Origin: a virus
Lineage: Duplodnaviria > Heunggongvirae > Uroviricota > Caudoviricetes
IMG/VR virus record: IMGVR_UViG_2695420687_000008
Length of the DNA: 4,340 nucleotides
Direction: 5' to 3' (one strand)
Below are positions 2,070 through 2,474 of this stretch, piece after piece (position 1 is the stretch's first letter; every line of letters begins with the position of its first letter). The notes under the pieces are model-generated. The model did no database searches and had not been told where the DNA came from. It was given only the letters and a program-made list of their open reading frames with translations. A program made the translations under genes and the position numbers.

Positions 2070-2215
2070 ATACCGGGTAGTTTTTCAGCATACTGAAGGG
2101 GCTACAATAAAGCCATGTGTAGCCCCCGTAAAGGTCGACAGCACTACGGGGCATTTTAGAGCGTCATATAGCCGCCTGTGTTGTAATGACACCGTTTCGC
2201 GGCTATTCTTGAGTT

Positions 2216-2285
2216 GTTTGGGTTCAAGATTAGCCTCCGTGATGTTGTCAGGTGAATACCTACAACGTGCGGGGGTTTTCTCTTT
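2216..2285 (+). ncRNA. putative small RNA (~68 nt) with own promoter and intrinsic terminator; possibly Rdl-like antisense RNA of an LDR-type type I toxin-antitoxin locus
   Basis: -35-like TTGTAA (2181-2186), 17-bp spacer, -10-like TATTCT (2204-2209), then terminator 2234-2285. Lies about 370 bp upstream of yhjV, where I recall K-12 carrying ldrD/rdlD. Sequence identity to rdlD not verifiable here. Confidence 0.35.
2234..2285 (+). terminator. rho-independent terminator (imperfect ~13-bp stem, 13-nt loop, U-tract)
   Basis: Stem CCTCCGTGATGTTGT (2234-2248) pairs with ACAACGTGCGGGGG (2262-2275), with G-U wobbles and a small internal loop; loop CAGGTGAATACCT; followed by TTTTCTCTTT (2276-2285). 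Confidence 0.55.
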
Positions 2286-2474
2286 CCAGCAACCAATGCC
2301 GCCGGGGATCAAGCCCCCGCAACATTGCGCCTCACCGGAAGACTCCGGCTTGGCGCTGATTCTACGGACGCTTTCTTGCCCTGACATCTGCCTGTTCCCG
2401 ACTTTGCGCGATGCATTCCAGCCTATTTACATATTTGCAGTGTTTGCACCGCATTGACGTTATTCAATCAACAC

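Follow-up and report, generated by a model that had tools for sequence, protein, structure and literature searches.

The window considered here, that is, the whole stretch of 4,340 nucleotides (nt) analysed, contains yhjV (2656-3954, plus strand), the gene that anchors the locus, together with two upstream genes that overlap one another on opposite strands. The first, rdl-2 (2216-2285, plus strand), encodes an Rdl-family antisense (antitoxin) RNA of about 66 nt plus a U tract and corresponds to an allele termed type A. The second is what is left of an ldr toxin gene, namely, ATG ACG CTC TAA (M-T-L-stop; 2167-2156, minus strand), preceded by its leader and promoter. Taken as a whole, the segment spanning 2156-2387 quite probably represents a decayed Long Direct Repeat (LDR) type I toxin-antitoxin unit at the LDR-D position of Escherichia albertii, from which the toxin was deleted and which now persists as a functionless relic. 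The RNA family is a known one, found at a known locus in a sister species of E. coli; this is not a new system. Indeed, annotated E. coli genomes, including those of DH5alpha and K-12-like strains, contain ldrD between bcsG and yhjV, as had been stated in an earlier reading of the window made from its letters alone (the sequence-only reading).

The assignment of rdl-2 relies on a match to the Rfam rdlD family (RF01813) at 2216-2281 of the plus strand that covers the complete model (positions 1-66 of 66) with a score of 86.5 bits (E = 4.5e-18), well beyond the curated gathering score of 50. The gene is preceded by a promoter comprising TTGTAA (2181-2186), a 17-nt spacer and TATTCT (2204-2209), which places the start of the RNA at about 2216. 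For the 70-nt RNA, a fold of -27.2 kcal/mol was obtained (z = -4.2; 0 of 200 shuffled sequences did as well), in which a long terminator hairpin precedes the U tract. An RNA of some 60-66 nt would hence be bounded by its own promoter and intrinsic terminator, as is typical of the Rdl family. When aligned with a K-12-like ldrD/rdlD locus, both hexamers were found to be identical and the sole difference within the promoter was one spacer base; the two hexamers are identical also in the other, bcsG-side LDR copy (copy 1) of most E. albertii strains. Since it matches the consensus at only 8 of 12 positions, this promoter was absent from the list returned by a generic promoter scan. The unit lies 371 nt upstream of the yhjV ATG (2656), and certain members of E. 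coli arrays have an rdl that matches rdl-2 at 95% identity. The promoter, the terminator, the distance of about 370 bp from yhjV and the presence of an rdl-type antisense RNA had all been proposed in the sequence-only reading, and all were borne out. Judged from its sequence, the antitoxin half of the unit (rdl promoter, 66-nt Rdl RNA and terminator) is intact, and rdl-2 is probably still transcribed. A minus-strand match to the Rfam 'sok' family fell below threshold (35 bits, as compared to a gathering score of 59) and was not used.

On the opposite strand, the ldr remnant retains a Shine-Dalgarno sequence, AGGCGG, just upstream of its ATG, a 5' untranslated leader (2168-2352, minus strand) that is 90% identical to the K-12-like ldrD leader and, as detected by a promoter scan, a promoter comprising ATGTCA, 17 nt and TAGAAT (2387-2359, minus strand), the -10 hexamer of which is conserved in copy 1 of E. 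albertii as well as at the K-12-like locus. The leader is wholly complementary to rdl-2 across 2216-2281 and is predicted to be strongly structured (z = -5.1), with the duplex formed by rdl-2 and the truncated ldr leader being predicted at -134 kcal/mol. The Rdl RNA is, in other words, antisense to the ldr 5' leader, away from the ribosome-binding site and start codon (rdl at 2216-2281; ldr ATG at 2167), a geometry that agrees with annotated E. coli loci and with the published description (PMC4147584).

In every comparison made with E. coli or E. albertii, LDR homology begins exactly at 2159, that is, 9 nt into the annotated ldr coding sequence (CDS). Because the edge of homology falls at precisely this point inside the CDS, the nine nucleotides encoding M-T-L, noted earlier as resembling the start of an Ldr peptide, are the true start of the toxin gene and not a chance match. 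The ldr promoter, 5' leader, ribosome-binding site and first three codons are accordingly intact, and codons 4-35 are gone. At the remnant, the 35-amino acid (aa) Ldr open reading frame (ORF) that characterizes a complete LDR unit (Pfam PF13940; FWHDLAAP core) is lacking, and a six-frame motif search of the whole window detected no Ldr-like peptide; the position, with yhjV found directly downstream, is the canonical one between bcsG and yhjV. The earlier statement that no FWHDLAAP-encoding ORF exists thus holds for the window, but not for the natural genome, where an intact ldr/rdl pair lies some 2 kb upstream. A further feature of the region is a perfect 9-bp inverted repeat, GGGGCTACA...TGTAGCCCC, at 2100-2128, within a truncated immunity-like pseudogene. 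Read on the minus strand, the repeat would give rise to a strong hairpin, located some 40 nt past the stop codon of the M-T-L mini-ORF, and might serve to end the truncated ldr transcript, with no clear U tract being seen.

Two ORFs that cross this region raise the question of whether the remnant could encode a new product, an explanation that is very improbable. The first is a minus-strand ORF of 46 codons (2296-2156, MVAGKRKPPHVV...GGYMTL) that is in frame with the ldr start and coincides with the site of a hypothesised leader ORF, ldrX (PMC4147584), while the second is a plus-strand ORF of 134 codons (2053-2457) that reads across the junction at 2158|2159. Nonetheless, what LDR copies share of the former is only the N-terminal MVAGKRKPPHVV, which overlaps the conserved DNA of the rdl terminator; past this point, frame and length vary from copy to copy (37, 46, 48 and 88 codons), as would be the case for non-coding sequence. 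As frame and length change among copies, there is no evidence for MVAGKRKPPHVV... being a coding sequence, and a conserved leader ORF is not supported. The plus-strand ORF, in turn, is the read-through tail of a frameshifted and truncated pseudogene, and a Pfam scan of the conserved pseudogene fragment upstream of the junction (L004 5296-5502; L004 being one of the E. albertii assemblies described below) yielded no match.

The position at which LDR homology ends raises a second question, namely, whether the truncation is real. All 5,426 of 5,426 complete E. coli genomes considered match the window from 2159 onward and none matches across the boundary, while the exact junction gave 0 matches among 185,579 species-representative genomes. 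In annotated E. coli loci, the bcsG-yhjV spacer is occupied by between one and three LDR units in tandem, all of which include a gene for a 35-aa Ldr toxin. Moreover, the window corresponds to an entire contig, CDRK01000192.1, from draft assembly GCA_000936005.1, and this contig looks like a misassembled mosaic of unrelated blocks. Given this mosaic character and the runs of N that it includes, a misjoin at 2158 was first suspected, in which case the truncation would be an assembly artefact and the real genome would carry a complete ldr. The unrelated blocks of the contig and the failure of any complete E. coli or species-representative genome to span the junction fit such an explanation. By contrast, positions 2055-4219, which include the junction, are collinear, at 99.9% identity, with large contigs and complete chromosomes of E. 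albertii, as determined by blastn against four assemblies (L004, L005, L007 and L010). The same M-T-L-stop junction, with point variants only, is moreover present in 14 of the 14 E. albertii loci retrieved that bear an inserted island at this site (insert-bearing loci), these originating from different assemblies. The real misjoin of the contig lies about 100 bp to the left, at 2055-2061, where the preceding block overlaps the natural yhjV block by a few bases. As the 2158|2159 junction is carried by at least 14 independent E. albertii assemblies, it is natural; a misjoin at 2158 is ruled out as its source, and next to no credence can be given to the notion of an artefact. The block boundary at about 2158 that had been offered earlier as an alternative to toxin loss does therefore exist, with the edge of LDR homology found exactly at 2159, as a natural deletion junction and not as a contig misjoin.

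The same comparisons identify the organism. The exact YhjV protein is present in E. albertii assemblies and is 99% identical to the protein of the E. albertii type strain, while identity to E. coli is uniformly no more than about 87-90% across the right block (2159-4219). By sequence comparison, the yhjV block is that of E. albertii and not that of E. coli K-12.

To the left of the junction, positions 2055-2158 (plus strand) correspond to the right end of an Imm57 immunity-gene island, and more precisely to a 3'-truncated, frameshifted homologue of a 240-aa protein. In tblastn searches, this last gene of the island aligned to residues 20-196 of the 240-aa protein encoded by an LDR-free relative, a metagenomic locus (L052), and the last residues aligned, '...STGHF', coincide precisely with the junction. 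The tail of the 240-aa gene (residues 202-240) is present in Pseudocitrobacter corydidari (L051), where an intact ldr follows some 100 nt further on. From the end of the island gene at residue 196 and from this order of tail and then ldr in Pseudocitrobacter, it can be deduced that a deletion of about 0.3 kb removed the 3' end of the island gene, the spacer and ldr codons 4-35, fusing ldr codon 3 to residue 196 of the island's last gene. With both ends of the deletion identified, the earlier suggestion that the toxin body was deleted and the antisense RNA retained is upheld.

In insert-bearing genomes, the order of the locus is bcsG, an intact ldr/rdl pair, an island of about 1.8 kb with genes for secreted, immunity-like proteins (Imm57), the truncated ldr with its intact rdl, and yhjV. 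In L004, bcsG is found at 1579-3258, the intact ldr (MTLAQLGMAFWHDLAAPVIAGILASLIVNWLNQRK) at 3451-3344 of the minus strand and its rdl at 3500-3566 (76 bits). These are followed by the island, up to 5502, which comprises three ORFs encoding signal peptide-bearing proteins, namely, an Imm57-family protein (Pfam, 3.9e-15), a 206-aa protein and the product of the frameshifted third gene; the truncated ldr and intact rdl begin at 5503 and yhjV begins at 6001. Natural genomes thus do have intact 35-aa Ldr ORFs, but these belong to copy 1, the unit beside bcsG about 2 kb upstream, and are missing from the window because the contig is a mosaic that is misjoined at about 2055-2061.

A 208/209-bp LDR segment is accordingly found twice in the natural genome. 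The copy contained in the window (2159-2366) is 91-93% identical to the bcsG-side copy by blastn, and is a substrate for recombination. Copies 1 and 2 are homologous as far as L004 3651, a point immediately beyond the ldr -10 hexamer. The idea that the island had replaced the -35 region of the copy-1 ldr promoter was ruled out, given that copy 1 extends further and forms a complete LDR unit, albeit one of another subtype; it is collinear with Pseudocitrobacter LDR units through about L004 3762. As for the island itself, its DNA has no match in the 5,426 complete E. coli genomes. Its genes are decaying, in that several strains have the 206-aa gene in two pieces (78+75 or 96+75 codons) and a frameshift affects the last gene in all strains examined (4374-4994 and 5009-5502, equivalents in L004, L005 and L056).

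To describe how the locus varies, 24 contigs encoding the exact YhjV protein were surveyed. The island and the remnant are present in 17 of these, and a single intact LDR unit is found in the other 7. In the single-LDR strains, the unit is a hybrid in which a left part resembling copy 1 is joined to a right part resembling copy 2. The crossover lies at one of two different points, and each hybrid matches the copy-1 allele of a related insert-bearing lineage. Hybrids with two crossover points indicate that recombination between the 209-bp repeats interconverts the island-containing and single-LDR states.

The two units also differ in the rdl alleles that they carry. Type A is the rdl allele of the remnant both in the lineage of the window, where the intact unit has type B or C, and in strain L054 (CP117628.1), where a K-12-like allele (type D) is found at the intact unit. 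Strains L056, L058, L059 and L060 present a type-A-like rdl at the intact unit, where L061 presents an A/B mosaic allele; in these five strains (L056 and L058-L061), the remnant rdl is of type B and a G insertion turns the -35 hexamer from TTGTAA into GTGTAA. The alleles have thus been swapped between lineages (copy 1, about 3560-3700; copy 2, about 5620-5760), such that type A belongs to the remnant in certain lineages and to the intact unit elsewhere; gene conversion, inter-strain recombination or selection may lie behind this. Because type A partners an intact ldr in other E. albertii strains, the rdl allele of the window can be taken to be a genuine antitoxin allele. In L054, an insertion sequence (IS) element of about 1.1 kb from the IS481 family, with rve and helix-turn-helix (HTH) domains, resides in the -35 region of rdl-2 (about 5630-6720 in L054, equivalent to about 2176-2186 in the window), and what looks like a target duplication, some 11 bp in length, borders it. 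Given the IS insertion in one strain, the -35 mutation in five and loss through repeat recombination elsewhere, the remnant looks dispensable and would appear to be decaying.

Such decay bears on the proposal that the orphan Rdl-2 was kept so as to act in trans, serving as a spare or 'anti-addiction' antitoxin. Its target would be either the bcsG-side ldr or some other ldr that has a type-A leader, whether located elsewhere in the genome or brought in on incoming DNA. In the lineage of the window, the promoter, RNA and terminator are all intact, and type-A rdl is the cognate partner of the intact ldr in L056, L058, L059 and L060. Close variants of rdl-2 (95%) exist in E. coli arrays, and the cross-duplex predicted between Rdl-2 and the ldr-1 leader is still about -100 kcal/mol, in line with this proposal. 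At the same time, this predicted cross-duplex is some 35-40 kcal/mol weaker than the cognate duplex, and 11 of 66-67 positions distinguish Rdl-2 from the resident Rdl-1, most of them falling within the 5' tail and apical loop. Antisense pairing normally starts in regions such as these. Furthermore, the remnant is disrupted by the IS element in L054, mutated in its -35 hexamer in five strains and absent from single-LDR strains, whereas the intact ldr is kept throughout. In light of the differences between Rdl-2 and Rdl-1 and of the weaker cross-duplex, trans-repression of the intact ldr by Rdl-2 may be possible but is not favoured, and retention of the orphan RNA for a role in trans is unlikely overall.

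Several points nevertheless limit the description of the unit as a relic. None of the two-copy strains examined has the same rdl allele at both copies (7-14 differences), and the second allele could be kept for a reason. Across nine sequences from the lineage of the window, rdl-2 is invariant; however, the flanking DNA is nearly invariant as well, and with polymorphism this low, the invariance of rdl-2 is uninformative with respect to selection. As to the change between the insert-bearing and single-LDR states, two independent excisions would be the simpler reading. Lastly, it is sequence conservation that suggests that rdl-2 and the truncated ldr leader are transcribed.

With these points considered, a toxin-less and decaying LDR unit is still the preferred explanation. 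Rdl, an unstable RNA of about 60 nt, has been described as lying antisense to the 5' leader of ldr and as leaving the ribosome-binding site free, and a leader ORF (ldrX) resembling that of hok/sok was proposed for ldr and is unconfirmed (PMC4147584); the overlap between rdlD and ldrD forms double-stranded RNA in an RNase III-dependent manner (PMC7373196). If both RNAs are transcribed, Rdl-2 would pair perfectly with the truncated ldr-2 leader, and such pairing would lead to a block in translation and to RNase III cleavage, as described for RdlD/ldrD. The sole product left to control would be the 3-codon mini-ORF. Since nothing toxic remains to be repressed, the pair would constitute a self-contained relic. 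That the antitoxin outlived the toxin would follow from the order in which such a module can decay, in that deletion of the toxin first would be the only order tolerated. The remnant would then be slowly lost via IS insertion, promoter mutation and recombination between the 209-bp LDR segments. No paper linking E. albertii and Ldr was found in the literature searched. In practical terms, annotation of an rdlD-type RNA upstream of E. albertii yhjV should not be read as signifying a working toxin-antitoxin module. More generally, the locus would provide an example of decay in which the toxin goes first and the antitoxin lingers, with individual steps, namely, deletion, promoter mutation, IS insertion and repeat recombination, being distributed across strains.

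How the island came to lie between two LDR units can be considered in terms of its relatives. Homologues of the island Imm57 protein are rare, being found in E. albertii, P. corydidari and a few metagenomic contigs. The closest homologues from outside E. albertii, those of P. corydidari (L051 4900-7000), lie within an LDR array at kdsA-chaA, the position of ldrABC in K-12. In the LDR-free relative (L052 4643-7361), Imm57 is preceded by a 453-aa gene of unknown function and shares the kdsA-chaA spacer with it and with the 240-aa gene. When E. albertii and Pseudocitrobacter are compared, the ldr ORFs are 58-72% identical, the LDR leader and promoter 94-100% identical and Imm57 88-98% identical, a contrast that suggests exchange with a breakpoint inside LDR. 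It is conceivable, although this is offered tentatively and with considerable doubt, that LDR repeats provide portable homology by which immunity cassettes move between loci and genera, the orphan Rdl being the scar of one such event. A linked possibility is that the retained Rdl-2 allele cross-protects against Ldr units with a matching leader. That LDR units bracket an Imm57 cassette at two loci in two genera is a hint that the repeats help genes move.

The remainder of the window is made up of the other blocks of the mosaic contig. Positions 1 to about 275 presumably correspond to a tuf-like stretch, as identified by our own reading of the sequence, and are separated by a stretch of some 80 nt (roughly 275-352) from apbC (353-923; 90% identical to E. 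coli). After an N-containing join (924-928), a prophage or island block with DUF4754 and MarR-like genes (930-2061) is 98.9% identical to E. coli. This is followed by the E. albertii yhjV block (2055-4219), a second N-containing join (4220-4232) and a fragment of a plasmid AraC-family gene (4233-4340; 98% identity). Beyond the window, in the dpp operon region downstream of yhjV, a match to the Rfam small RNA family ES036 (CssrF) was obtained at 11462-11504 of L004, L005 and L009 (56.7 bits). The corresponding contig of the type strain (NBRC 107761; L011 1-200) breaks off inside the 209-bp LDR repeat, just upstream of yhjV, and shows two G-to-T differences in the stem of the rdl terminator; this probably reflects repeat-induced contig breakage and an end-of-contig error. 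Together with the mosaic window, this contig end points to the 209-bp LDR repeats as probably breaking or confusing assemblies.

The E. albertii locus can be compared with several known systems. Paralogous Sib RNAs, as Han et al. are said to have found in 2010, discriminate among their targets by a few differences in the regions where pairing starts. As in the Sib/Ibs system, Rdl-2 and Rdl-1 also differ mainly in the 5' tail and apical loop; no report on discrimination among Rdl paralogues was found in a literature search that was not chosen for this question. A second parallel concerns decay. Pedersen and Gerdes reportedly described, in 1999, the chromosomal hok/sok loci of K-12 as having been inactivated by IS elements, point mutations and rearrangements. 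There, too, it is the toxin side that was inactivated and the antisense RNA gene that persists, and an IS insertion is likewise seen in L054. Unlike hok/sok, Ldr does not belong to the Hok family, and the E. albertii unit underwent a clean deletion that left a 3-codon mini-ORF.

Closer relatives are the tandem LDR arrays, that is, ldrA-C/rdlA-C at kdsA-chaA in K-12 and the two to three units found at bcsG-yhjV in many E. coli, which likewise comprise several diverged units, each with its own rdl allele. In E. albertii, by contrast, foreign genes spanning about 1.8 kb lie between the units, and the one nearer to yhjV is toxin-less. The closest counterpart is LDR-D of E. coli K-12 (ldrD/rdlD; RF01813, PF13940), which shares with the remnant both its position between bcsG and yhjV and its geometry, in that rdl lies over the 5' leader, is encoded on the strand opposite to ldr and has its start 49 nt away from the ldr ATG. 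The rdl promoter hexamers of the two are identical, and identity across 2159-2366 is about 90%. They differ in that the toxin ORF of the E. albertii remnant has been cut to three codons and in that the single unit of K-12 corresponds, in the natural E. albertii locus, to two LDR units split by an immunity-gene island.
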